Shown piece after piece: positions 10,426 to 22,259 of a stretch of 55,014 nt of DNA (its first letter is position 1; each line of letters opens with the position of its first letter). Under the pieces are notes generated by a model that was given only the letters and a program-made list of their open reading frames with translations, searched no databases and was not told the origin of the DNA. The stretch lies in contig DATAHN010000043.1 of NCBI GenBank assembly GCA_036263155.1, positions 1 through 55,014 of the forward strand. Direction: 5' to 3'. The position numbers were made by a program, and so were the translations under genes. Source of the DNA: Gammaproteobacteria bacterium. GTDB lineage: Bacteria > Pseudomonadota > Gammaproteobacteria > Natronospirales > REEB76.

Positions 10426-11241
10426 TCAGGTTTCCGCGGCCCAGGCCTTGGCCAGCCGTGTCAGGGAACCGATCGGGTAGCTGCGCGCGCCGATGCGCGT
10501 CACCGGCCACACCCCGGCGATGGAATTGCACACGAATATCTCCCGCTGGTCCAGCAGTTCATCCAGGCCCATATGCCGCACTTCGGTCTTGATCCCGGCC
10601 TGCTCCGCCCGCGCCAGGATGTGGCGGCGCGTCACGCCGGCAATACCCGCTTGGCTCAGGTCCGGCGTCACCAACCTATCCTCTGCCGGTGATGCGAACA
10701 GGTTTGTCATTGTACCTTCCACCGCGCGACCGCCGGTGTCCAGCATCAGGCCCTCCGGCGCGCCCTCGCTCAATTCCGCCCGTGCCAGCACCTGCTCCAG
10801 GCGGTTAAGGTGCTTCAAACCGGCCAGGGCGGGATTGCAGGCGAGACGCGTCGTGCACAGGCGCAACTCGATGCCCTGTTCGCTCCATGTGGCGGGATAG
10901 TCGGGCCAGGGATATCTGAAGAGGATTCGCGTGGCGGCCGGCTCTGCAGGGGGCCGGTAACCACGCCCGCCGCTGCCGCGGGTGAGGATGAGTTTGAGCA
11001 CGACCCGTTCCTGGCCCTGGGCGGCCTGCTGCAACTCGTGTTCGAGCGACCCACGGTCCGGCGCAACGAACCCGAGCCTGCCGCAGCTCTCTTGCAGACG
11101 ATCCAGGTGTAGGGCCAGCCTCTGGACGCGTCCGCCCCGCACAGCCAGGGTCTCGAACAGGCCGTCGCCGTAGTGCAGACCCCGGTCCGTGAGCGGCAAG
11201 GCGTCAGCCGGCTGGCCGTCGATCCAAGCAGCGGACTTCAT
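10426..11241 (-). CDS. pabC: Aminodeoxychorismate lyase
   Basis: DRGLHYGDGLFET, GLKHLNRLEQVL (PLP lysine), EGTMTNLF. Confidence 0.93.
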   Translation of the reverse strand: MKSAAWIDGQPADALPLTDRGLHYGDGLFETLAVRGGRVQRLALHLDRLQESCGRLGFVAPDRGSLEHELQQAAQGQERVVLKLILTRGSGGRGYRPPAEPAATRILFRYPWPDYPATWSEQGIELRLCTTRLACNPALAGLKHLNRLEQVLARAELSEGAPEGLMLDTGGRAVEGTMTNLFASPAEDRLVTPDLSQAGIAGVTRRHILARAEQAGIKTEVRHMGLDELLDQREIFVCNSIAGVWPVTRIGARSYPIGSLTRLAKAWAAET

Positions 11242-12581
11242 GCGTCCGCTCCCAGGGCGCGGGCGAGGCCGCGGGCCTTGGCGCGCGTCTCTTCCAGCTC
11301 CCGCTCCGGCACCGAGTCCGCCACGATGCCCGCGCCGGCACGGAACGTCAGGCGGCGTCCCTTCTGCACCAGGGTACGGATGAGGATGTTGAGGTCCATG
11401 TCGCCGTCCAGGTTCAGCCAGCCCATGGCGCCGGTGTAGGCCTCACGGCTAGCCTGCTCCAGCTCGGCGATGATCTGCATGCAGCGCACCTTGGGACACC
11501 CGGTGATGGTGCCGCCCGGGAACACCGCGCGGATGACCTGCGCTGGAGTAGTGCCCTCGCGCAGCCGGGCGCAGACGTTGGAGACGATGTGGTGCACGTG
11601 GGTGTAGGACTCCACCACCATGAGTTCATCCACCCTGACGCTGCCCGGTTCCGCCAGCCGTCCTAAGTCGTTGCGCTCCATGTCCAGGAGCATCACATGC
11701 TCGGCCCGCTCCTTGGGGTTCTCGATGAGCTCGCGGATGAGGGCCGCGTCCCGGGTCGGATCAGGGCCCCGCGGCCGGGTGCCGGCGATGGGCCGGGTGT
11801 CCACCCGCCGCCCCGTGACGCTGACGAGACGCTCCGGCGAGGAACTGATGATTGCCGCGTCGCCGTAGAGAGCCAGGCCCGCGAAGGGCGCCGGGTTGGC
11901 GCGGCGCAGCCTGGCGTAGAGGCCGGTGGGCGTCGCTTCCGGCGCCAGCGCCGCCGACCAGTGCCGGCTCAGGTTCGCCTGGAAGATGTCTCCCTCATAT
12001 ATATACCGTCGCGCGCACATCACCTGGTCAAGGTAGCGCCGCGGCTCCTCCTCCGCGAGCCCGCCGATCAGTGCCGCGGTCTCCCGCACCGGCCCTTGTC
12101 CCAGGATGATCGCCTCGAGCAGGGCTTCGCTGCCGGGCTCCGCCACCCAAGTCACGGTGCCGGCCAAGTGATCCCGCACCAGGGCCGCCGGTGTGCGCGC
12201 GGCGAATGCTACCGGCAGGTCGCGGCCCAACGTAAGCCTAAGGTTCTGCTCGATCTGCCCCACGAGCTCGTAGCCGAGGTACAGGAAGAAGCCGCCGCGG
12301 AAGGCGCTGCCCTCGGCACCCTTCCCATGTGTACGTTCCGCGCGCCACCAGCCATCGAGTGCCGTCAGGAAGTCGCCACCGGCCTCTTCCGCATGGGGAC
12401 CGGTGAGACGGCCGTCCGCGTGCAGCACCAGCATCTCGGGATCGGGGCGGGCGAACAGAAAATCGTAACGGCCCTGGGCGCCGCCACGGGCAGCGCTCTC
12501 CAGCAGGAATGGGAAAAGATCGGGCGCATCCTGGCACGCGGCCAGGAAGTCGGCGTCGTAAGGGATGTGGGCCGCGCCCAT
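11238..12581 (-). CDS. pabB: Aminodeoxychorismate synthase component I
   Basis: GDIFQANLSR, SSPERL, TRPIAGT, AEHVMLLDMERNDLGR, FPGGTITGCPK; start set at ATG 12581. Confidence 0.88.
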   Translation of the reverse strand: MGAAHIPYDADFLAACQDAPDLFPFLLESAARGGAQGRYDFLFARPDPEMLVLHADGRLTGPHAEEAGGDFLTALDGWWRAERTHGKGAEGSAFRGGFFLYLGYELVGQIEQNLRLTLGRDLPVAFAARTPAALVRDHLAGTVTWVAEPGSEALLEAIILGQGPVRETAALIGGLAEEEPRRYLDQVMCARRYIYEGDIFQANLSRHWSAALAPEATPTGLYARLRRANPAPFAGLALYGDAAIISSSPERLVSVTGRRVDTRPIAGTRPRGPDPTRDAALIRELIENPKERAEHVMLLDMERNDLGRLAEPGSVRVDELMVVESYTHVHHIVSNVCARLREGTTPAQVIRAVFPGGTITGCPKVRCMQIIAELEQASREAYTGAMGWLNLDGDMDLNILIRTLVQKGRRLTFRAGAGIVADSVPERELEETRAKARGLARALGADA

Positions 12582-12604
12582 GGCCGGCCGCGGGAGTCCG
12601 CCGC

Positions 12605-13846
12605 TCAGATGCGGCGGAACACCAGCGTGCCGTTGGTGCCGCCGAACCCGAAGGAGTTGGACAGCACCACGTCGATCTTCATCTTGCGCGCCTTGTTTGG
12701 CACGTAGTCGAGATCGCACTCGGGGTCCGGATTCTCCAGGTTGATGGTGGGCGGCGCCACCTGGTCACGCATCGCCAGGATGCTGAACACCGCTTCCACG
12801 CCACCGGCGGCACCCAGCAGGTGCCCCGTCATGGACTTGGTGGAGCTGATGGCGACCTTCTTCGCATACTCGCCGAAAGCACGCTTGATGGCGATGGTCT
12901 CGCCCTTGTCGCCCACCGGCGTGGAGGTCCCGTGGGCGTTGATATAATCCACCTGCTCCGGCTTGATGCCGGCGTCATTCAGCGAGTTCGTCATGCACAG
13001 GCGCGCGCCCTCGCCGTCGTCCGGCGGGGAAGTCATGTGGTAGGCGTCGCCGCTCATGCCGAATCCGATGAGCTCGCAATAGATCTTGGCGCCGCGCTTC
13101 TTCGCGTGCTCATACTCCTCCAGCACCAGCACCCCGGCGCCCTCGCCCAGCACGAAGCCATCCCGGTCCTTGTCCCAGGGACGGCTGGCCTTCTCCGGCG
13201 CATCGTTGCGCTCCGAGAGCGCACGCGCGGCGCAGAAGCCGCCCAGGCCGAGCGGCGTCACCGCCATCTCGGCGCCGCCCGCCACCATCACGTCGGCCTC
13301 ACCGTACTGGATGTTGCGCATCGCCAGGCCGATGTTGTGGTTGGCAGTGGTGCAAGCCGTGACCACGGCGTAGTTCGGGCCCTTGAGGCCGTACATGATC
13401 GAAAGATGCCCGGAGATCATGTTGATGATGCTGGAGGGCACGAAGAACGGCGACACACGCTTCGGGCCGTGGTTGTCGATGATGGAGGAATGGGCCTTCT
13501 CGATGTTGGTGAGGCCGCCGATGCCCGCACCCACGGCGACGCCGATGCGTGCCGCGTTCTCCGGGGTCACCTGGATGCCGGAGTCCTTGAAGGCCTGCAC
13601 GGACGCCGCGATGCCGTAGTGCACGAAGGGATCCATCTTCTTGATGTCCTTCGGCGTGATGTACTGGGTCGGGTCGAAGTTCTTCACCTCGGCCGCGATC
13701 TTGGTCGGGTAGTTGGTGACGTCGAAATGGGTCACCTGCCCTACGCCGCTCTTGCCGGCGAGGATGTTGGCCCAGGATTCCTCGATGCTGTTGCCGACCG
13801 GGGAGATGATCCCCATGCCCGTGACGACGACCCGACGCTTGCTCAC
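12605..13846 (-). CDS. fabF: 3-oxoacyl-ACP synthase II
   Basis: [14 protein letters not shown] (catalytic Cys), [26 protein letters not shown]. Confidence 0.97.
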
Positions 13847-13912
13847 TTGGACTGCCCTCTCTTCGCTCGCATATTCACCGAGTATACGCGGATAGCCGCG
13901 TCATCTCATAAA

Positions 13913-13946
13913 TGACAAGGCCGTTGTCACCTCGCGATGACAACGG
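13913..13946. other. Intergenic stem-loop between acpP and fabF with an alternative pairing
   Basis: ccgttgtca-N8-tgacaacgg (13921-13946); tgacaa at 13913-13918 can alternatively pair with ttgtca at 13924-13929. Confidence 0.55.
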
Positions 13947-13971
13947 CGCTTGTTCTGCGGAATCCCGCCAC

Positions 13972-14214
13972 TCAGGCGTTGGGCAGGTGTTCCTTGATGT
14001 AGCTGATGGCCTGGCCGACGGTAGTGATCTTCTCGGCCTCTTCATCGGGGATCTCACACTCGAACTCTTCCTCGAGCGCCATCACGAGCTCCACGGTATC
14101 CAGCGAGTCAGCGCCCAGATCGTCCACGAAGGAGGCCTGCGGGGAGACCTGGTCTTCCTTCACGCCCAGTTGTTCGACGACGATCTTCTTGACGCGTTCT
14201 TCAATGCTGCTCAT
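13972..14214 (-). CDS. acpP: Acyl carrier protein
   Basis: [38 protein letters not shown]. Confidence 0.97.
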
Positions 14215-14401
14215 GACTGTTAAGACCTCCCAGTGTGACAAAACAGTTCGGCATCGGCATAACCGACCAAACTGGGGGCGGTATTGTAGAGAAAACCCCC
14301 TGCCTGCGCCACTTGCCCTTTATACCCTTTCTAAATAGGCCTATAAGCCCCATAGACCCTTCGAAAACCGCCCCAAAACCGCCAAAGCCGTCGTGAGGCG
14401 G

Positions 14402-15142
14402 CTAGGCCATGTACATGCCGCCGTTGACGTGGATCGTCTCACCGGTGATGTAGCTCGCGCCCGGCGAGGCCAGGAACAGCACCGTGGCGGCGATGTCCTC
14501 CGGCGCGCCGAGGCGCTCCAACGGGATCTTCTGCATGAGCGCAGCCCGCTGCTCGTCGGTGAGCGCGCGAGTCATGTCGGTGTCGATGAAGCCCGGCGCC
14601 ACCGTGTTCACTGTGATGCTGCGGGAGCCGACCTCCTGGGCCAGCGAGCGCGTGAAGCCCATGATGCCGGCCTTGGCGGCGCAGTAGTTCGCCTGACCCG
14701 GGTTGCCGGAGGCGCCCACCACCGAGGCGATGCTGATGATGCGGCCGCGCCGCGCCTTCATCATGCCGCGCAGGCAAGCCTTGGAGAGGCGGAACACCGA
14801 GGTGAGATCGGTGTCGAGCACCGCGTTCCAATCCTCCTCCTTCATGCGCAGGAGCAGCGTGTCGCGAGTGATGCCGGCGTTGTTCACGAGCACCGTGGGG
14901 TCGCCGAACTCGGCCACCAGGGCCTTGAGCGTCTCGTCCACCTGGGCGGAATCCGAGACGTTGAGCACCACGCCCTTGCCCTTGATGCCCTCGGCCTTGA
15001 GATAGTCGCTGATCTGCTGCGCGCCCTCGGGCTTGGTGGCGGTCCCCACCACGGTGGCGCCGGCCTTGCCGAGCGCGACCGCGATGGCCTTGCCGATGCC
15101 GCGAGTTGCGCCGGTGACGAGGGCGATATCCTGATTCAGCAT
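14402..15142 (-). CDS. fabG: 3-oxoacyl-ACP reductase
   Basis: ALVTGATRGIG, NNAGITRD, NYCAAK (YxxxK), VAPGFIDTDM; ATG 15142 (TTG 15148 possible). Confidence 0.96.
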   Translation of the reverse strand: MLNQDIALVTGATRGIGKAIAVALGKAGATVVGTATKPEGAQQISDYLKAEGIKGKGVVLNVSDSAQVDETLKALVAEFGDPTVLVNNAGITRDTLLLRMKEEDWNAVLDTDLTSVFRLSKACLRGMMKARRGRIISIASVVGASGNPGQANYCAAKAGIMGFTRSLAQEVGSRSITVNTVAPGFIDTDMTRALTDEQRAALMQKIPLERLGAPEDIAATVLFLASPGASYITGETIHVNGGMYMA

Positions 15143-15144
15143 GT

Positions 15145-16080
15145 TCAAACTCCTGCCGCGGCCAGGGCGGCCTGCAGCGTCGAAGGGTCGTATACGGGAT
15201 AGGTCTCCACGGCCTTATCGATGCGCTTGCCGAGACCGGCTAGCACCTTGCCGGGGCCGAACTCCACCTGCTTCACCATGCCGTCGCGCGCGAGCTTCTG
15301 CACCGTCTCGACCCAGCGCACCGGGCTGTGCAGCTGCGCTTCGAGCACGGCACGGATCTCACCCGGATTGGAATGCCTGCTCACGTCCACGTTGTGGATA
15401 ACCGGGATGCGCGGCGCCTTGATCTCGAGGGCGGCGAGCCTCTGTGCGAGCCGCTCGGCGGCGGGCTTCATCAGCGCGCAGTGGGAGGGCGCGCTCACCG
15501 GCAATGGCAGCGCGCGCTTGGCGCCTTTGGCCTTGCACAGCTCGCCGGCGCGCTCCACCGCGGCCTTGGAACCGGCTATCACGACCTGGCCCGGCGCGTT
15601 GAAATTGACGGCTTCCACCACTTCGCCCTGCGCCGCCTCGGCGCAGGCGGCGCGCACCGCGTCGTCATCCAGGCCGATGATGACGAACATGGCGCCTGTA
15701 CCGGCGGGCACGGCCTCCTGCATGGCCTGTCCGCGGAACTCCACGAGCTTGATGGCGTCCTTGAAGTCGAGAGCACCGGCACAGACCAGCGCCGTGTACT
15801 CACCCAGGCTGTGGCCCGCCATGGCGGAGGGATCGGCGCCGCCCGCGGCCTTCCACGTGCGCCAGGCGGCGACGCCGGCGGCGAGCAGCGCGGGCTGGGT
15901 CTGCTGGGTGGCGTTGAGCCGCTCCTCGGGCCCCTGCTGGCAGAGCGCCCACAGGTCGTAGCCGAGCGCCGCGGAAGCCTCGGCGAAGGTCTGCTGCACC
16001 TCGGGCCGCTCGGCCGCGAGCGTGCCCAGCATGCCGAGCGACTGGGAACCCTGTCCCGGAAACACCGCGGCGAAACTCAT
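15145..16080 (-). CDS. fabD: Malonyl-CoA:ACP transacylase
   Basis: FPGQGSQ, GHSLGEY, NFNAPGQVVIAG, SAPSHCALM; ATG 16080 overlaps the rhombosortase stop. Confidence 0.96.
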   Translation of the reverse strand: MSFAAVFPGQGSQSLGMLGTLAAERPEVQQTFAEASAALGYDLWALCQQGPEERLNATQQTQPALLAAGVAAWRTWKAAGGADPSAMAGHSLGEYTALVCAGALDFKDAIKLVEFRGQAMQEAVPAGTGAMFVIIGLDDDAVRAACAEAAQGEVVEAVNFNAPGQVVIAGSKAAVERAGELCKAKGAKRALPLPVSAPSHCALMKPAAERLAQRLAALEIKAPRIPVIHNVDVSRHSNPGEIRAVLEAQLHSPVRWVETVQKLARDGMVKQVEFGPGKVLAGLGKRIDKAVETYPVYDPSTLQAALAAAGV

Positions 16081-16706
16081 GCTCCGTCTCCACTTCGTTT
16101 GGGACCGCGCATTATACGGTGCCACGGCAGGCCGCCGCCAAAGCCGATGAGCGCGCCGGCGAAGGCGCCGTAGAGATGCGCGTCCACGATCACGGCGCCG
16201 CCGGTGGACACGCTGGAGAACGGCAGCGCACCGAAACACTGCTCGTAGGCGAGTTTCGACACCAGCAGTGCCGCCAGCACCCAGCCGAAGCGGTCGCGGC
16301 GCCGGATCAGCCCGAGGCTGCCTGCGGCCCACAGGGTGTCGAGGGCGCCGGAGATGCCCACATACCAGTCCACCTGCGGGTCGCCCGCCAGCAGGCCGAG
16401 GCCCACCGCCAGCGCACCGGCAGAGACCACCGCCGGCGTCCGCCAGCCCGGCAGCGCATCCTCGAACAGGAGCCACAGCAGCAGGAGGCCCGCCATGTCC
16501 TCGAGCAGATGCCCGGTGCCAAGGTGCACGAAGTTGCCGGTGAAGAGCCGCCATGCCTCCCCGTGCAGGATGGCGACACGCTCGTAGCGCAGGGCCACGC
16601 GCAAGGGCTCTCCGCCCAGTGCCAGCAGCAAGCACGGCAGCAGCAGCGCGAGCAGCGGCCAGTGACGCCGCGCGAGATCGAGGATGCGTTGGGACACCGG
16701 AGGCAT
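16077..16706 (-). CDS. Rhombosortase (GlyGly-CTERM-processing rhomboid protease)
   Basis: LRYER...GEAWRLFTGNFVHL, WYVGISG (catalytic Ser), acidic-free STGGAVIVDAHLYG (catalytic His); six-TM short rhomboid next to T2SS genes. Confidence 0.82.
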   Translation of the reverse strand: MPPVSQRILDLARRHWPLLALLLPCLLLALGGEPLRVALRYERVAILHGEAWRLFTGNFVHLGTGHLLEDMAGLLLLWLLFEDALPGWRTPAVVSAGALAVGLGLLAGDPQVDWYVGISGALDTLWAAGSLGLIRRRDRFGWVLAALLVSKLAYEQCFGALPFSSVSTGGAVIVDAHLYGAFAGALIGFGGGLPWHRIMRGPKRSGDGA

Positions 16707-16776
16707 GGGAGGCTAGTGTATGATTGAGCCTGCGCGAGGATGCGCGCCAACCCTGATTTTATCAGCCCAAACAGCC

Positions 16777-17232
16777 ATGCAGACCCGCAAGCAGCAATCC
16801 GGTTTCACCCTCATCGAAGTGATGGTGGTGGTGGTCATCCTCGGCATCCTGGCCGCGGTCATCGTCCCCAAGATCATGGACAAGCCAGACGAGGCCCGTC
16901 TGGTGAAGGTCAAGGCCGATATCCAGCAGATCCAGTCCACCCTGGAGATGTACCGCCTCGACAACTATGTCTACCCGAGCACCGAGCAGGGCCTGCAGGC
17001 GCTGGTGCAGAAGCCCTCGGCCAACCCCGAACCGGCCCACTGGAAGCAGTACCTGGATCAGCTGCCGGTGGACCCCTGGGGCCATCCCTACCAGTACCTG
17101 AACCCGGGCACCCATGGCACGGCGGTGGACATCTGGTCCAACGGCGCCGACGGCACGCCCGGCGGCGAGGGGGTGAACGGCGACATGGGCAACTGGAACA
17201 TGAACGGGAACGCCGCGAACGGCGGACACTGA
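16777..17232 (+). CDS. gspG: T2SS major pseudopilin
   Basis: Prepilin site G/FTLIEVMVVVVIL; MYRLDNYVYPSTEQGLQALV, DPWGHPYQY. Confidence 0.96.
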   Translation: MQTRKQQSGFTLIEVMVVVVILGILAAVIVPKIMDKPDEARLVKVKADIQQIQSTLEMYRLDNYVYPSTEQGLQALVQKPSANPEPAHWKQYLDQLPVDPWGHPYQYLNPGTHGTAVDIWSNGADGTPGGEGVNGDMGNWNMNGNAANGGH

Positions 17233-17250
17233 CCGGCAAGGACGCCCACG

Positions 17251-17841
17251 GTGAGCCCGCAACGCAGCAAGGGCTTCACGCTCCTCGAACTCCTGGTGGT
17301 GATGGTGATCATCGCGGTGATCGCCAGTGTCGCCGTCATATCCACCGGCGCCCTCGGCCGCGACCCACCGGCCCAGAAAGCCGCGCATGAGCTGGCGGAC
17401 CTCGCCGGCCTCGCCTCCGAGCAGGCGGTGATGCAGGGCCGTGTGTACGGCCTGCGCATCGAGGCCCACGGTTATTCCTTCTATACCTACGATGGCCGCA
17501 AGTGGTCGCCGCTGCAGGCCGACAACCTCTTCTACCGCCGTGACCTGGGCGATGACGTGACGCTCACCCTGCACATGGACGGCACCACATCGGCGCTGGC
17601 CCCGCCGCCCGCGACGGTGCAGGAACCGGCGGCCGCCACCAGCGCTACGCCCGCCGTGCACGAAGGTGACACGGACCAGACCGAACTGCCCCAGGTGCTG
17701 CTCCTGTCCAGCGGCGAGCTCCTGCCCTTCGAGATCGAGGTCGCCGGCGTCTCCGGTGCGGCATACACCGTCAAGGGCTCCCTCACGGACGGCATCACGG
17801 TGGTGGAACCGTCTGCCGACGCGGGCAAGGCCAGGCCATGA
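17251..17841 (+). CDS. gspH: T2SS minor pseudopilin H
   Basis: GTG start; G/FTLLELLVVM; SSGELLPFEI; position after gspG. Confidence 0.9.
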   Translation: MSPQRSKGFTLLELLVVMVIIAVIASVAVISTGALGRDPPAQKAAHELADLAGLASEQAVMQGRVYGLRIEAHGYSFYTYDGRKWSPLQADNLFYRRDLGDDVTLTLHMDGTTSALAPPPATVQEPAAATSATPAVHEGDTDQTELPQVLLLSSGELLPFEIEVAGVSGAAYTVKGSLTDGITVVEPSADAGKARP

Positions 17842-18212
17842 AGCGCACGCGCGGCTTCACGCTGCTGGAGGTGCTGATCGCGCTCGCCGTGCTGGCGCTC
17901 GGCATGCTGGCGGTGATCGGCACCGCCGGCTCCAGTTCGCGCCTGGGCGCGCAGCTGCGGGACAAGACCTTCGCCGGCTGGGTGGGCATGAACGAGCTCA
18001 CCATGCTGCGGGTGGCCCAGAGCTGGCCCAGCGACGACTCGCTGAACGGCGACGCCGACATGGGCGGCCAGAAGTGGCACTGGAAGGCCACCATGACCAA
18101 GACCGCGGACCCGGATCTCTTGCGGGTGGACATCGACGTGAGCCTGCCCGACAGCGACGCGGTCATCACCACCGTCACCGGCTTCATGGGCCGGCCGCCA
18201 CAGAGAGGTTGA
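17838..18212 (+). CDS. gspI: T2SS minor pseudopilin I
   Basis: G/FTLLEVLIALAVL, MGGQKWHW. Confidence 0.9.
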   Translation: MKRTRGFTLLEVLIALAVLALGMLAVIGTAGSSSRLGAQLRDKTFAGWVGMNELTMLRVAQSWPSDDSLNGDADMGGQKWHWKATMTKTADPDLLRVDIDVSLPDSDAVITTVTGFMGRPPQRG

Positions 18213-18214
18213 AC

Positions 18215-18856
18215 GTGGATCGCGCGCGCGGCTTTACGCTGATCGAGCTGCTGGTGGCCTTGAGCATCACCGCGCTCATCATGGCCATCGCCTACGGCGG
18301 CCTCGGTGCCGTGACCAAACAGTCGGAAGGCAATCGCGACACCATGAAGCGCCTGCGCCAGGTGCAGCTCGCCATGGACATCATGGCGCGCGACTTCGCC
18401 CAGCTCGAGCCGCGCCCGGTGCGCGACGGCCTGGGCGGCAGCGTGCCCGCCTTGGTGGCGGGTCCCGACAACGTGCCGCCCATCGTGTTCACCCGCGGCG
18501 GCTGGAGCAATCCGCTCGGCACGGTGCGCAGCACCCAGCAGCGCGTGGCTTACAGCCTGGAGGACGGCAAGCTCATGCGCTCCTGGTGGCCGGAGCTGGA
18601 CGGCATGGCGCAGCTCACGCCCGCCAAGCAGCCGCTGCTGGACGATGTGAGCTCCATCAAGTTCCAGTACATGGACCCCGTCTCCAAGAGCTTCCAGGAC
18701 GTGTGGACCGCCACCGCCGCACGCGCGGCGCCCGGCGTGAAGCCGGCGGGCGACGTGCTGCCGGTCGCGGTCAGCATCACCATCACGCTCAAGGACCTGG
18801 GGGAGCTGACCCGCATCGTGGAGGTGGCGAGCTGTGCCTCGAACTGCGGCCCCTGA
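18215..18856 (+). CDS. gspJ: T2SS minor pseudopilin J
   Basis: Within track ORF 17666-18856; GTG 18215 after agagagg (TTG 18209 possible); G/FTLIELLVAL, FTRGGWSNP, QRVAYSLEDGKLMR. Confidence 0.9.
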   Translation: MDRARGFTLIELLVALSITALIMAIAYGGLGAVTKQSEGNRDTMKRLRQVQLAMDIMARDFAQLEPRPVRDGLGGSVPALVAGPDNVPPIVFTRGGWSNPLGTVRSTQQRVAYSLEDGKLMRSWWPELDGMAQLTPAKQPLLDDVSSIKFQYMDPVSKSFQDVWTATAARAAPGVKPAGDVLPVAVSITITLKDLGELTRIVEVASCASNCGP

Positions 18857-18857
18857 C

Positions 18858-19787
18858 ATGGATGCGCGCCAGCGCGGAGTCGCGCTCATCACCGCGCTGG
18901 TGGTGCTGGCCATCGCCGCCGGCATGTCCGCCGCCATGATCTGGCAGACGGGGCTCGACGAGCGGCGCACCGCGACGCTGGTGCAGGGCGACCAGGCCCT
19001 GGAGTATGCGCTGGGCGCAGAAGCCTGGGCCGGCCAGATCCTCTCGCGCGCCGCGCGCAAGAACCAGGGTGTCACCGCCTTGAGCCAGGACTGGGCGCAG
19101 CAGCTGCCGCCGCTGCCGGTGGACGGCGGCCAGATCCAGGGCCGCATCGAGGACTTGCAGGGCCGCTTCAACGTCAACAACCTGGTGAATGCCCAGGGCG
19201 TGATCCAGGCTCCGATAGTGGAGCAGTTCCACCGTCTCTTGCAGGCGCTCGAACTCGACCCCGCGATCGCCGACGCCACCGCCGACTGGATGAGCCCCGG
19301 CACCGGCGCGAGCCAGGGTGGCGCCAAGGACGACTACTACTCGCGCCTGCAGCCGGCCTACCTCACCTCCGGCGTGCCCATGAGCAGCATCAGCGAGATG
19401 CTGCTGGTCAAGGGCGTGACGCCGGCGGTCTATGCCCGGCTCTCGCCCTACCTCTCGGCGCTTCCCCCGCCCCTGGGCGGCGGCGCCACCACCGTGAACG
19501 TGAACACCGCCCCGGGGCCGGTGCTGGAGTCGCTGGATCCGCACATCACGCCCGACCTCGCCTCACAGGTGATCGGCGAGCGCGGCAGCGTGGTGTTCAA
19601 CACCGGCAACCCGCCCCAGGCGTTCACCGCGGCGAACCTCGCCCCCAAGGGCATCGGCTACGACAGCCAGTACTTCCTGGTGACAGTGGACGCGGAGATT
19701 GGCACCACTCACGTCACCCTGTACAGTCTGCTGCTGCGCAACGGCGTCAACGTGACCACCGTGCGCCGAACCCTCGGGACCCTCTGA
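18858..19787 (+). CDS. gspK: T2SS minor pseudopilin K
   Basis: QRG/VALITALVVLA, IEDLQGRFNVNNL, VNVNTAP. Confidence 0.9.
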   Translation: MDARQRGVALITALVVLAIAAGMSAAMIWQTGLDERRTATLVQGDQALEYALGAEAWAGQILSRAARKNQGVTALSQDWAQQLPPLPVDGGQIQGRIEDLQGRFNVNNLVNAQGVIQAPIVEQFHRLLQALELDPAIADATADWMSPGTGASQGGAKDDYYSRLQPAYLTSGVPMSSISEMLLVKGVTPAVYARLSPYLSALPPPLGGGATTVNVNTAPGPVLESLDPHITPDLASQVIGERGSVVFNTGNPPQAFTAANLAPKGIGYDSQYFLVTVDAEIGTTHVTLYSLLLRNGVNVTTVRRTLGTL

Positions 19788-19789
19788 GC

Positions 19790-21013
19790 ATGGCCGAATC
19801 CCTCTACCTGCACCTGCCGCGCGCCGCCGGGCCCGCCCACTGGCTGCTGGTGGACAGCCTGGGCAACCGCATCGGCCACGTGCAGCAGGGACCCATCGAG
19901 GATGCCTTGCCGTTCGCCAAGGGCCGGCGCGTCACTGTGCTCATGCCCGGTGAGCAGGTCACGCTGCTGCACGTGGATGTGCCGAGCCGCAATCCGCAGA
20001 AGGTGCTGCAGGCGGTGCCCTTCATGCTCGAGGACAAGCTGGCGGAGGACGTGGAGTCGCTGCATTTCGCGCTCGGCGACCGCACCGAAGCCGGCCAGCT
20101 GGTGGCGGTGGTGAGCCGCGCACGCATGCAATCCTGTCTCGACACGCTCGCCGCGGCCGGTATCGCGCCGCGCCAACTGATACCGGACGTCTGCGCCCTG
20201 GTGCCGGAACCTGGCACTGCCGCCGTCGCGCTGGACGGTGACGCCGCACTGGTACGTTTCGCTGAAGGCGGAGGCTTCGCCACCGACCTCGTGCTGGGCG
20301 CGCCTCTGCTCAAGCGCCGCGCCTTCGAGAGCGGCGGCGCCCTCACCCGCGTGGAGCTGTATGGCACCGAATCCGATATAGAGACCTTCGATGCGACGCT
20401 GGGCGACGCATCGCTGGAGCGCGTGAAGCACCCGAATGCGGACGGCGCACTGCCGGCCCTCGCGGCAGAGCTGCGCGGCCAGCGCGGTCTCGATCTTCTG
20501 CAGGGCGACTTCCGCCTGCAGACGCCGCTGCAGGAGCACTGGCACACTTGGCGCGTGGCGGCGATATTGCTCGCGCTCTGCCTGCTGCTCGGTTTCACCG
20601 AGCAGATCACCTCCTACGTGCGCCTGCGTCACCAGGCTGCGGCGCTGGATTCCCAGGTGGCCGAGTTCTACACCCAGGCCACCGGCAGTCCGGTGCCGGA
20701 AGGCACCGATGCACTCACGGCGATGAAGAGCAAGCTCAGAGCGCTTCAGGGCGGCAGCTCCGCCGGCTCCCTGCTGGCGCTGCTGGATGCCCTCGGTGAT
20801 TCCATCGGCGGCAACGCCTCCATCCAGATCACCGGCTTCAACTACCAGGGGGGCAACCTGCAGGTCCAGGTCCAGGCCGGCGACATCGGTGCCCTGGACG
20901 CACTCAAGGGCGCACTCAACCAGCAGGCCGGCGTGCGCGCCGACCTGGATTCCGTCAACGCCGCCGGCAGCCAGGTGACCGGGCGTCTCGTGCTCAGCGG
21001 AGGCGGCGCATGA
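19790..21013 (+). CDS. gspL: T2SS inner-membrane platform protein L
   Basis: AVPFMLEDKLAEDVESLHFAL, PDVCAL, DLLQGDF, then a TM segment. Confidence 0.9.
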   Translation: MAESLYLHLPRAAGPAHWLLVDSLGNRIGHVQQGPIEDALPFAKGRRVTVLMPGEQVTLLHVDVPSRNPQKVLQAVPFMLEDKLAEDVESLHFALGDRTEAGQLVAVVSRARMQSCLDTLAAAGIAPRQLIPDVCALVPEPGTAAVALDGDAALVRFAEGGGFATDLVLGAPLLKRRAFESGGALTRVELYGTESDIETFDATLGDASLERVKHPNADGALPALAAELRGQRGLDLLQGDFRLQTPLQEHWHTWRVAAILLALCLLLGFTEQITSYVRLRHQAAALDSQVAEFYTQATGSPVPEGTDALTAMKSKLRALQGGSSAGSLLALLDALGDSIGGNASIQITGFNYQGGNLQVQVQAGDIGALDALKGALNQQAGVRADLDSVNAAGSQVTGRLVLSGGGA

Positions 21014-21510
21014 AGCAGTTCGCAGAGCTCAAGGCCTGGTACCTGTCCCTGCAGCAGCGCGAGCAGCGCATATTGATGGTGGGTGCCGTGTTCCTGGTGG
21101 GTATGTTCATCTACCTTGCACTGCTGCATCCCTACTTCGCGAGCCGCTCGCGGCTCACTGCGGACATCGCCTCACACCAGGCCGAGCTCGCCGAGATGCG
21201 GCCCATGGCAGCGCGGCTGCAATCCCTGCGCGGGCAGCAACCCTCCGGCATCCCCGCTGGTCAGTCACTGCTCGCGGTGGTGAGCCGCAGCGCCAACGAT
21301 TCCGGCTTCGGCGCCGCCGTGAAGCAGGCCCAGACAAACCCCGACGGCTCCGTGCGCGTGCAGATGCAGGCGGTGGGCTTCGACAGCGTGATCCGCTGGA
21401 TCGGCACCCTGCGCCGCCAGTATGGCATCTCGGTGCGCGACATGAGCGCGCAGCGCGCGAGCGGCGCCGGCACGGTGGACACCACCCTCACCCTGACCGC
21501 TGGTTCATGA
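21010..21510 (+). CDS. gspM: T2SS protein M
   Basis: WYLSLQQREQRILMVG, single TM, ferredoxin-like C-terminus (FDSVIRWIGTL). Confidence 0.88.
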   Translation: MKQFAELKAWYLSLQQREQRILMVGAVFLVGMFIYLALLHPYFASRSRLTADIASHQAELAEMRPMAARLQSLRGQQPSGIPAGQSLLAVVSRSANDSGFGAAVKQAQTNPDGSVRVQMQAVGFDSVIRWIGTLRRQYGISVRDMSAQRASGAGTVDTTLTLTAGS

Positions 21511-22259
21511 GCTGGCGTGTCCTGCGCTGGTGGCTGCTGGGTGCGGTCGCCTATCTCGTGTTCCTGGGTGCCACCCTGCCCGCCCGATATCTTGCCGACC
21601 GCGCCATGCGCCAGTTGCCCGGGCTCGAACTCAATGGTGTCACAGGCTCCGTCTTCTCCGGCGCCGCGGCGGACGTGCGCTGGCAAGGCACGTCCCTCGG
21701 CGGCATGGCCTGGCGCTTCGACTGGCTCGCGCCGTTATCGGCCAGCTTCGGCTATCGCGTGCACCTGCAAGGCGAGTCGCAGGAACTGGCAACACGCATG
21801 GACATGGGGATGGGCCATCGTCTCTACCTGCGCGGTGTGGACGGGCGCCTGCCCGTCGCGACGGTGATGGCCTGGCTGCCGCTGCCGCCCCGCGCGCTCG
21901 CCGGCTCTTTGACGCTGCACCTGGACCAGCTGAGCTTCAAGGAAGGCAGCCTGCGGTCCGCCCAGGGCGAGGTTGACCTGGACGAGGCAGTGCTGAGCTG
22001 GCCCGCCACCGCCACCCTGGGCAGCTTCCGCATGCTGCTGATCCCGGCCGCCGACGGGGTGGATGCCGAGGTGTCCGACGTGGCGAGCCCCCTGCGGCTG
22101 AACGCCAAGCTCAGCTTGAGTTCCGGGGGCGCCTATCACCTGGCCGGCACCCTGGCGGCCAAAGACCCCGGCGACAGTGCTACCCGCTCCCTGCTGGCGG
22201 GCCTGGGCAATCCCGATAGCACCGGCCAATATCCCTTCGACTTCAAAGGACAATGGTGA
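21507..22259 (+). CDS. gspN: T2SS protein N
   Basis: YLVFLGATLPA, GVTGSVFSGAA; last gene of the gspG-N run. Confidence 0.85.
   Translation: MSWRVLRWWLLGAVAYLVFLGATLPARYLADRAMRQLPGLELNGVTGSVFSGAAADVRWQGTSLGGMAWRFDWLAPLSASFGYRVHLQGESQELATRMDMGMGHRLYLRGVDGRLPVATVMAWLPLPPRALAGSLTLHLDQLSFKEGSLRSAQGEVDLDEAVLSWPATATLGSFRMLLIPAADGVDAEVSDVASPLRLNAKLSLSSGGAYHLAGTLAAKDPGDSATRSLLAGLGNPDSTGQYPFDFKGQW

Follow-up and report, generated by a model that had tools for sequence, protein, structure and literature searches.

Why would the fatty acid synthesis genes of a bacterium begin inside the last codons of a rhombosortase gene, which itself stands head-to-head with genes of a type II secretion system (T2SS)? 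The question is raised by contig C43 of a metagenome-assembled genome (MAG) from an uncultured lineage of Gammaproteobacteria (153 contigs, 2.46 Mb, completeness of 93.7%, G+C content of 66.5%), the whole of which, 55,014 nt, is hereafter the window. On the minus strand, the TGA of the rhombosortase gene rrtA (16079..16077) overlaps the ATG of fabD (16080..16078) to form an ATGA (16080..16077), and 70 bp separate the start of rrtA from that of the divergent gspG at 16777, both as described in the initial annotation (Table 1). That annotation also proposed that sortase, pseudopilus and acyl-chain supply are coupled and co-regulated. Our data support the coupling of rhombosortase and T2SS, but not its extension to acyl supply. 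We consider it likely that the locus combines an old rrtA/gspG pairing, an ancient inversion that brought in the fab genes, and a fabD that is transcribed mainly from its own promoter.

The rhombosortase and its T2SS partner

In addition to the family match given in Table 1, the rrtA product matches Pfam Rhomboid (PF01694) with 47 bits, and it has the catalytic Ser119 (G117-I-S119-G120, the GISG motif) and His177, both of which are invariant in 177 aligned rhombosortases. The HxxxN motif, a general rhomboid feature and not a stated TIGR03902 criterion, reads H66-L-L-E-D70 (16497-16511), with Asp replacing the oxyanion-stabilising Asn. The same replacement occurs in 39 of the 177 rhombosortases, 35 of them in the clade where rrtA is linked to fab genes (hereafter fab-linked). 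This active-site change is clade-specific; the adjoining residue is Glu in 28 of the Asp-bearing sequences. The last ~20 codons of rrtA form a non-conserved tail, which holds the predicted -10 box and the Shine-Dalgarno sequence of fabD.

Rhombosortases were discovered by phylogenetic profiling (Haft and Varghese 2011, PMC3237569). In Vibrio cholerae, the rhombosortase RssP (VC1981) cleaves the GlyGly-CTERM of VesB, and the C-terminus of the cleaved cargo gains a glycerophosphoethanolamine-containing moiety, which is known for VesB only (Gadwal et al. 2018, PMC6219818). A search with TIGR03501 found no GlyGly-CTERM protein encoded within the window, as had been noted before, and three matches above cut-off in the whole genome, compared with none in 14 control genomes. 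The three motifs each end 2-4 residues short of the stop codon and the tails follow the Gly-rich, hydrophobic, then Arg-rich pattern (Table 1). Signal-peptide-like N-termini were recognised by eye on the C82 and C17 proteins, while the N-terminus of the C80 protein is cut off by the contig end. We predict from these signatures that the two subtilases and the FG-GAP protein are surface-anchored T2SS cargo. GlyGly-CTERM proteins were also found, at 1-4 per genome, in 26 of 41 relatives.

The genes gspC, gspD, gspE and gspF lie on contig C69 and gspG to gspN in the window, each as a single copy. The T2SS is therefore complete and single, as judged on GspC-M plus N, with GspO/PilD outside the set tested. 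Since a complete T2SS and three GlyGly-CTERM cargo are found in the same genome, the link between sortase and secretion is well supported. The system resembles RssP and the Eps T2SS of V. cholerae in the rhombosortase family (TIGR03902) and its Ser/His dyad, in having GlyGly-CTERM proteins, including proteases, alongside a complete T2SS, and in the few cargo per single sortase. It differs in that rrtA is head-to-head with gspG and directly upstream of fabD, a feature of the present locus, in the Asp found at the HxxxN Asn in the present clade, and in being known here from genes alone. By analogy with V. cholerae, cargo exported by Sec would lose its GlyGly-CTERM tail to the rhombosortase in the inner membrane, and the modified cargo would then be carried to the surface by the T2SS, of which gspG-N would supply the pseudopilin and assembly half. 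The pairing of rrtA with gspG would reflect this known functional chain of sortase cleavage followed by T2SS export.

How widely the arrangement is conserved was assessed in three samples. Among 40 relatives sampled within the order, 36 had a rhombosortase above cut-off and 30 loci were fetched; in every one of these (30/30) gspG and gspH diverge from rrtA, which is followed by fabD and fabG in its own direction. Such an arrangement is far beyond chance. The ATGA overlap between rrtA and fabD is found in the genus of the window (g1) and in family f2, while in other families the two genes are 26-53 nt apart, seldom more, and the spacing of rrtA and gspG is mostly 70-83 nt. When each GTDB species was scanned through a single genome, the nearest 80 loci, all from MAGs, were labelled Gammaproteobacteria, Natronospirales, Steroidobacteraceae, Woeseiaceae or Chromatiaceae. 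About 66 of them showed the rrtA/gspG pairing. The full gspG/rrtA/fabD arrangement was found in ~50, among them MAGs of Woeseiaceae and Steroidobacteraceae; six had rrtA followed directly by fabG, twelve had gspG/rrtA without fab genes, and rrtA stood alone in fourteen. Finally, an even sample of 400 Gammaproteobacteria gave 133 genomes with a rhombosortase and 100 fetched loci, of which ~40 have gspG adjoining rrtA, and only 3 outside the order have fab genes downstream of it. These counts indicate that the rrtA/gspG pair is broad and old and that the fab link is lineage-specific. Across much of the Gammaproteobacteria the pairing would be the ancestral state, with rrtA often antisense between gspF and gspG.

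The split fab cluster and a predicted fabD promoter

In Escherichia coli the fab cluster is yceD-rpmF-plsX-fabH-fabD-fabG-acpP-fabF-pabC-mltG-tmk-holB. From fabD onwards the window keeps this usual gammaproteobacterial order through pabC, mltG, tmk and holB, and it also resembles E. coli in that acpP is preceded by a gap of its own and followed by a hairpin. However, the canonical layout with plsX-fabH directly upstream of fabD is not found at the locus. These two genes had been described as absent, which is correct for the locus and incorrect for the genome, because both were found above cut-off on contig C69, thereby ruling out that they were lost or replaced. On C69, fabH-plsX is immediately convergent with gspC-gspD-gspE-gspF-orf194-orf1061, and maf and rluC lie beyond plsX, giving the same rluC/maf/.../plsX-fabH order as in E. 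coli. The cluster therefore differs from that of E. coli in being cut at fabH|fabD, with each half abutting half of the T2SS, so that, over C69 and the window, the two parts of the fab cluster are in contact with the two parts of the T2SS. A second, dedicated fab set was also ruled out, since fabD gave one tblastn match in the genome and acpP is likewise single copy; the fab genes at the locus are the genome's sole copies and serve housekeeping.

A single inversion fits both junctions if one of its ends is placed at fabH|fabD and the other in the space separating gspF from the 3′ end of rrtA; its direction and single origin are inferred. Such an ancient event would have left plsX-fabH convergent with gspCDEF and put fabD-fabG-acpP-fabF directly downstream of rrtA, which would explain why fab genes are found at the locus. 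The reciprocal junction, in which plsX and fabH run towards a convergent gspF, is present in five genomes of the window's own family (G008, G011, G015, G019, G023), in G028 of family f5, in G036 and G040 of family f9, where fabH directly abuts gspF, and, outside the order, in G378. In G019, fabH (plus strand, 318 kb) and rrtA (minus strand, 430 kb) share a contig and are oriented as predicted, implying an inverted segment of ~111 kb. The inferred parent layout is also found: in 13 class-wide loci gspF runs towards the 3′ end of rrtA, and gspCDEF is followed there by an antisense rrtA and then by gspG to gspN. These clusters, from uncultured and cultured bacteria (e.g. G350, G430, G422), share with the window the divergent rrtA and gspG, the short intergenic region and a -10-like box before gspG, but their T2SS is contiguous, and at least four of the genomes keep an unbroken fab cluster at another place. 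Both parents, an intact plsX-fabH-fabD-fabG-acpP-fabF and the convergent gspF and rrtA next to gspG, are held by G350, G206, G430 and G310. On the rhombosortase tree, the fab-linked state needs 7 changes, compared with ~47 in shuffles; 52 of the 58 fab-linked rows fall in one group, and the well-supported (starred) branches force only 2 changes.

Downstream of gspF on C69, two further genes run in its direction (C69:19526-23404, corresponding to L035:8527-12405). The first, orf194, encodes 194 amino acids with no family match and overlaps gspF by 4 nt, while orf1061 encodes a 1061-amino-acid Sortilin/BNR-repeat protein with four paralogues in the genome. The position of both is kept in the family of the window, and that of orf1061 in family f5 as well; they could be T2SS accessory or cargo genes.

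We then turn to the expression of the fab genes. The -10 boxes reported here were found by comparing relatives, after a consensus promoter and terminator scan of 13800-17400. On the minus strand, the only terminator-like site between the rrtA start and fabF is the acpP-fabF hairpin, with none between the rrtA start and acpP, so transcripts from the rrtA promoter are likely to read through into fabD. A perfect TATAAT also begins 36 nt upstream of the fabD ATG, leaving 30 nt in between. This hexamer occurs 95 times in the 2.46 Mb genome (both strands) and twice in the window, and yet it is found 31-54 nt upstream of fabD in 27 of the 30 loci of the order, in coding and intergenic positions alike. 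Following the catalytic His motif, it is present in 45 of 57 fab-linked loci as opposed to 1 of 115 other rhombosortase loci, even though the latter are more A+T-rich. The junction of the outlying Woeseiaceae-type group has it as well. In a subgroup of seven loci (L076, L079, L097, L102, L110, L113, L207) fabG-acpP-fabF comes directly after rrtA, with fabD at another place; here TATAAT is at the same distance from the rrtA His motif in 6 of the 7. By comparison, it is absent from all 13 fabD loci unlinked to rrtA, including four canonical fabH-fabD loci, and its inheritance from the canonical fabH-fabD spacer is thus not supported (0/4 canonical and 0/13 unlinked loci).

Since TATAAT is rare in the genome and conserved in fab-linked loci, fabD probably has its own promoter, and the hexamer is best read as the putative -10 element of a fab promoter belonging to the junction. 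In E. coli, fabH-fabD-fabG transcription relies mainly on a strong promoter that lies in plsX, upstream of fabH, and the one before fabD is weak (review PMC3896788), while the present locus has a perfect -10 before fabD. Where an inversion has cost a lineage its upstream promoter, one would expect the promoter next to fabD to become stronger. Most likely, fabD-fabG would be expressed mainly from its own TATAAT promoter, and in the genus the rrtA frame would simply run on through this promoter and the fabD ribosome-binding site to its TGA. Read-through from rrtA to fabD would probably be incidental rather than a device coupling lipid supply to anchoring.

The initial annotation had named three findings that would speak against its proposal, namely a genome devoid of GlyGly-CTERM proteins, an arrangement unique to this genome, and a fabD transcribed from its own promoter. 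The first two do not hold, since cargo exist and the arrangement recurs throughout the order, and the third is what the hexamer leads us to predict.

Alternative readings of the junction

Several observations weigh against the reading proposed here. With regard to the promoter, 12 of the 57 fab-linked loci lack a perfect TATAAT, no good -35 is found near that of fabD, and the consensus scan did not call a promoter there. It could then be argued that rrtA-fabD-fabG is an operon with a single promoter in the 70-bp region, and that TATAAT is there because the rrtA tail is constrained, or because RNA is processed or bound at this site. The overlapping stop and start codons, the Shine-Dalgarno sequence within rrtA, the lack of a terminator and the missing -35 would all agree with such an operon. 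However, the hexamer is kept alike whether it falls in rrtA coding sequence or in a non-coding gap of 26-53 nt, it is in the same place where fabG replaces fabD, and the rest of the rrtA tail is unconserved. In addition, an exact sigma-70 -10 consensus is very rare in a genome of such G+C content, and we regard a single-promoter operon as very unlikely.

Regarding the inversion, the rhombosortase tree is short and weakly resolved, and six fab-linked rows, some of them long-branched, are outside the main group. G025, G246 and G261 do not have the reciprocal fabH/gspF junction, and later rearrangements or separate events must be assumed for them. Moreover, the fabH|fabD boundary is broken, in different ways, in 9 of 13 other gammaproteobacterial genomes (L233, L235, L237-L243). 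Rearrangements seem to recur at this boundary, and the case for a single event is weaker for it. In these broken loci the genes upstream of fabD vary, an example being a conserved trio of ~269, ~380 and ~640 amino acids in family f112. The fusion of rrtA with the fab genes could accordingly have arisen several times at a fragile boundary, instead of by one ancient, clade-wide inversion, and the seven changes on the tree would be in line with this. Yet at least three families of the order, and G378 as well, have both of these junctions together, the 45 loci sharing TATAAT at the junction include the Woeseiaceae-type outliers, and the starred branches force two changes only. We therefore find multiple origins unlikely, although the safe statement is that the fab-linked state had one or a few origins.

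Finally, the full catalytic competence of the rrtA product is uncertain because the Asn of HxxxN is Asp, and a junction conserved for so long, with an ATGA overlap in two families, could reflect selection for co-expression. According to the co-regulation hypothesis, rrtA, the pseudopilus operon and fabD-fabG-acpP-fabF would form one adaptive module in which acyl and phospholipid supply is tuned to anchoring and secretion. It would gain from the conservation of the junction across the order and beyond, from the overlap in g1 and f2 and the absence of a terminator between rrtA and fabD, from the conserved boxes in the short shared intergenic region, and from the report that the V. cholerae anchor is lipid-derived (PMC6219818). 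Nevertheless, that anchor requires a phosphatidylethanolamine head group and not extra malonyl-ACP (general knowledge and PMC6219818). The fab genes are housekeeping genes present as sole copies, the junction would be one of the reciprocal pair left by the inversion, and a conserved perfect -10 stands directly before fabD. The fab genes are also seldom downstream of rrtA outside the order (~3/100 class-wide loci), and in some lineages fabD has departed and fabG follows rrtA. In V. cholerae, the best-studied species, rssP (VC1981 in PMC6219818) is unlinked to the fab and eps clusters; this counts against the module too, and we judge it highly improbable.

A further possibility is that the junction was co-opted after it had formed, with the bidirectional gspG/rrtA region adding to fabD-fabG transcription when secretion is induced, and that the rrtA/gspG pair marks a T2SS subclass for lipid-anchored display. 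In that event phospholipid synthesis, cargo lipidation and pseudopilus assembly would be raised together. We hold this to be distinctly unlikely; Haft and Varghese reported no evidence that rhombosortase marks any T2SS subclass (PMC3237569).

Features of the locus and their meaning

The features of the locus are collected in Table 1, together with the predicted cargo. Downstream of fabF, on the same strand, are pabB, pabC, mltG, tmk, holB and a PilZ gene. The longest pabB open reading frame (ORF; 11238-12719) overlaps the end of fabF by ~115 nt, and the true start is probably further downstream, since the family model aligns only from residue 52. The start of fabG is 2-4 nt from the fabD stop, with TTG at 15148 or ATG at 15142, and the gap of ~187 nt between fabG and acpP leaves space enough for a separate acpP promoter. 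An alternative gspG start at 16720 (ATG after GGGAGG) was dropped, given that the prepilin leader would be atypically long and that relatives have the upstream ATG either in another frame (L017) or with a stop after it (L023).

Table 1. Features of the locus, with positions in the window, and predicted GlyGly-CTERM cargo on other contigs
Feature	Position	Strand	Evidence or remark
fabF, beta-ketoacyl-ACP synthase II	12605..13846	minus	TIGR03150, 684 bits
GC hairpin and T-run between acpP and fabF, terminator-like	13920..13947	minus	terminator scan
acpP, acyl carrier protein	13972..14214	minus	NF002149, 145 bits
fabG, 3-oxoacyl-ACP reductase	14402..15148	minus	NF004197, 397 bits
fabD, malonyl-CoA:ACP transacylase	15145..16080	minus	TIGR00128, 374 bits
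GGAG, Shine-Dalgarno of fabD	16088..16091	minus	from sequence; within rrtA tail, 7 nt before ATG
TATAAT, predicted sigma-70 -10 of fabD(-fabG) promoter	16116..16111	minus	perfect match; within rrtA codons Arg-Ile-Met
rrtA, rhombosortase, 209 amino acids	16706..16077	minus	TIGR03902, 139 bits (curated cut-off 84); model positions 3-153 of 154
rrtA-gspG intergenic region, 70 bp	16707..16776	both	-10-like boxes and GC inverted repeat
gspG, major pseudopilin	16777..17232	plus	TIGR01710, 184 bits
gspH	17251-17841	plus	NCBIfam equivalog
gspI	17838-18212	plus	NCBIfam equivalog
gspJ	18209-18856	plus	NCBIfam equivalog
gspK	18834-19787	plus	NCBIfam equivalog
gspL	19790-21013	plus	NCBIfam equivalog
gspM	21010-21510	plus	Pfam T2SSM
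gspN	21507-22259	plus	Pfam T2SSN
Cargo, S8 subtilase with Calx-beta domain	contig C82		tail GGGGGSIDLISLLALGAAFARRRRNA, then stop
Cargo, FG-GAP repeat protein	contig C17		tail SNGGGALDLFSLGLLAAFALRRRVRG, then stop
Cargo, S8 subtilase with PA, Fn3-like and VesB-like Ig domains	contig C80		tail GGGGGSLDLLSLAALALTLKRRMQRD, then stop

In the 70-bp region between rrtA and gspG, a -10-like TATGAT (16719-16724, plus strand) is found ~50 nt upstream of gspG, inside a block, TTGnTGTATGAT, that shows conservation of at least 80% across 28 family-level sequences, and similar boxes are seen in other families. On the rrtA side, a TAAAAT (16761..16756, minus strand) is fixed in position in the genus-level loci. 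It is plausible that the two are back-to-back -10 elements for gspG and rrtA, respectively; a full sigma-70 promoter was not found in this region by the consensus scan. A short GC inverted repeat (16732-16747, GCGCG-AGGATG-CGCGC) lies between the two boxes, and other genera have a different but palindromic sequence there, e.g. TGCGATTC...GAATCGCA in L055. The repeat could be an operator or a 5′ hairpin.

Other neighbourhoods of rrtA were also observed. In two class-wide loci (L206, L213) rrtA is immediately upstream of gspG and co-directional instead of divergent. The rhombosortase loci that lack gsp genes (L069, L083, L121, L157 and 22 others, from Chromatiaceae-type MAGs) usually have rrtA after glnD (PII uridylyltransferase), often with a 4-nt overlap, and a convergent EamA/DMT transporter gene after rrtA, making up a second, unrelated conserved neighbourhood. 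ORF-based clustering of neighbours gave spurious antisense ORFs in G+C-rich loci, and only the clusters inspected at the sequence level (GspF, GlnD and the EamA-type transporter) were kept.

The locus is thus a known system in a lineage-specific arrangement, and what is new here is the inversion model, the reciprocal junction and the fab promoter element. Neighbourhoods of rrtA with gsp or fab genes are not described in PMC3237569, PMC6219818, PMC11389362 or a 2026 bioRxiv preprint. Experiments on the link between rhombosortase and T2SS have so far been made only in V. cholerae, and the physical pairing of the two in ~40% of the sampled gammaproteobacterial loci adds genomic support to it. The locus also provides a worked case of operon splitting, in which an essential fab operon was cut and a consensus -10 appears to have been acquired by the part downstream. 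A tight, overlapping and conserved junction such as that of rrtA and fabD can be a frozen inversion scar with its own promoter, and is not necessarily a functional operon. For the organism itself, an uncultured soil and sediment lineage, the gain in annotation is a set of proteins that can now be predicted as surface-anchored T2SS cargo.

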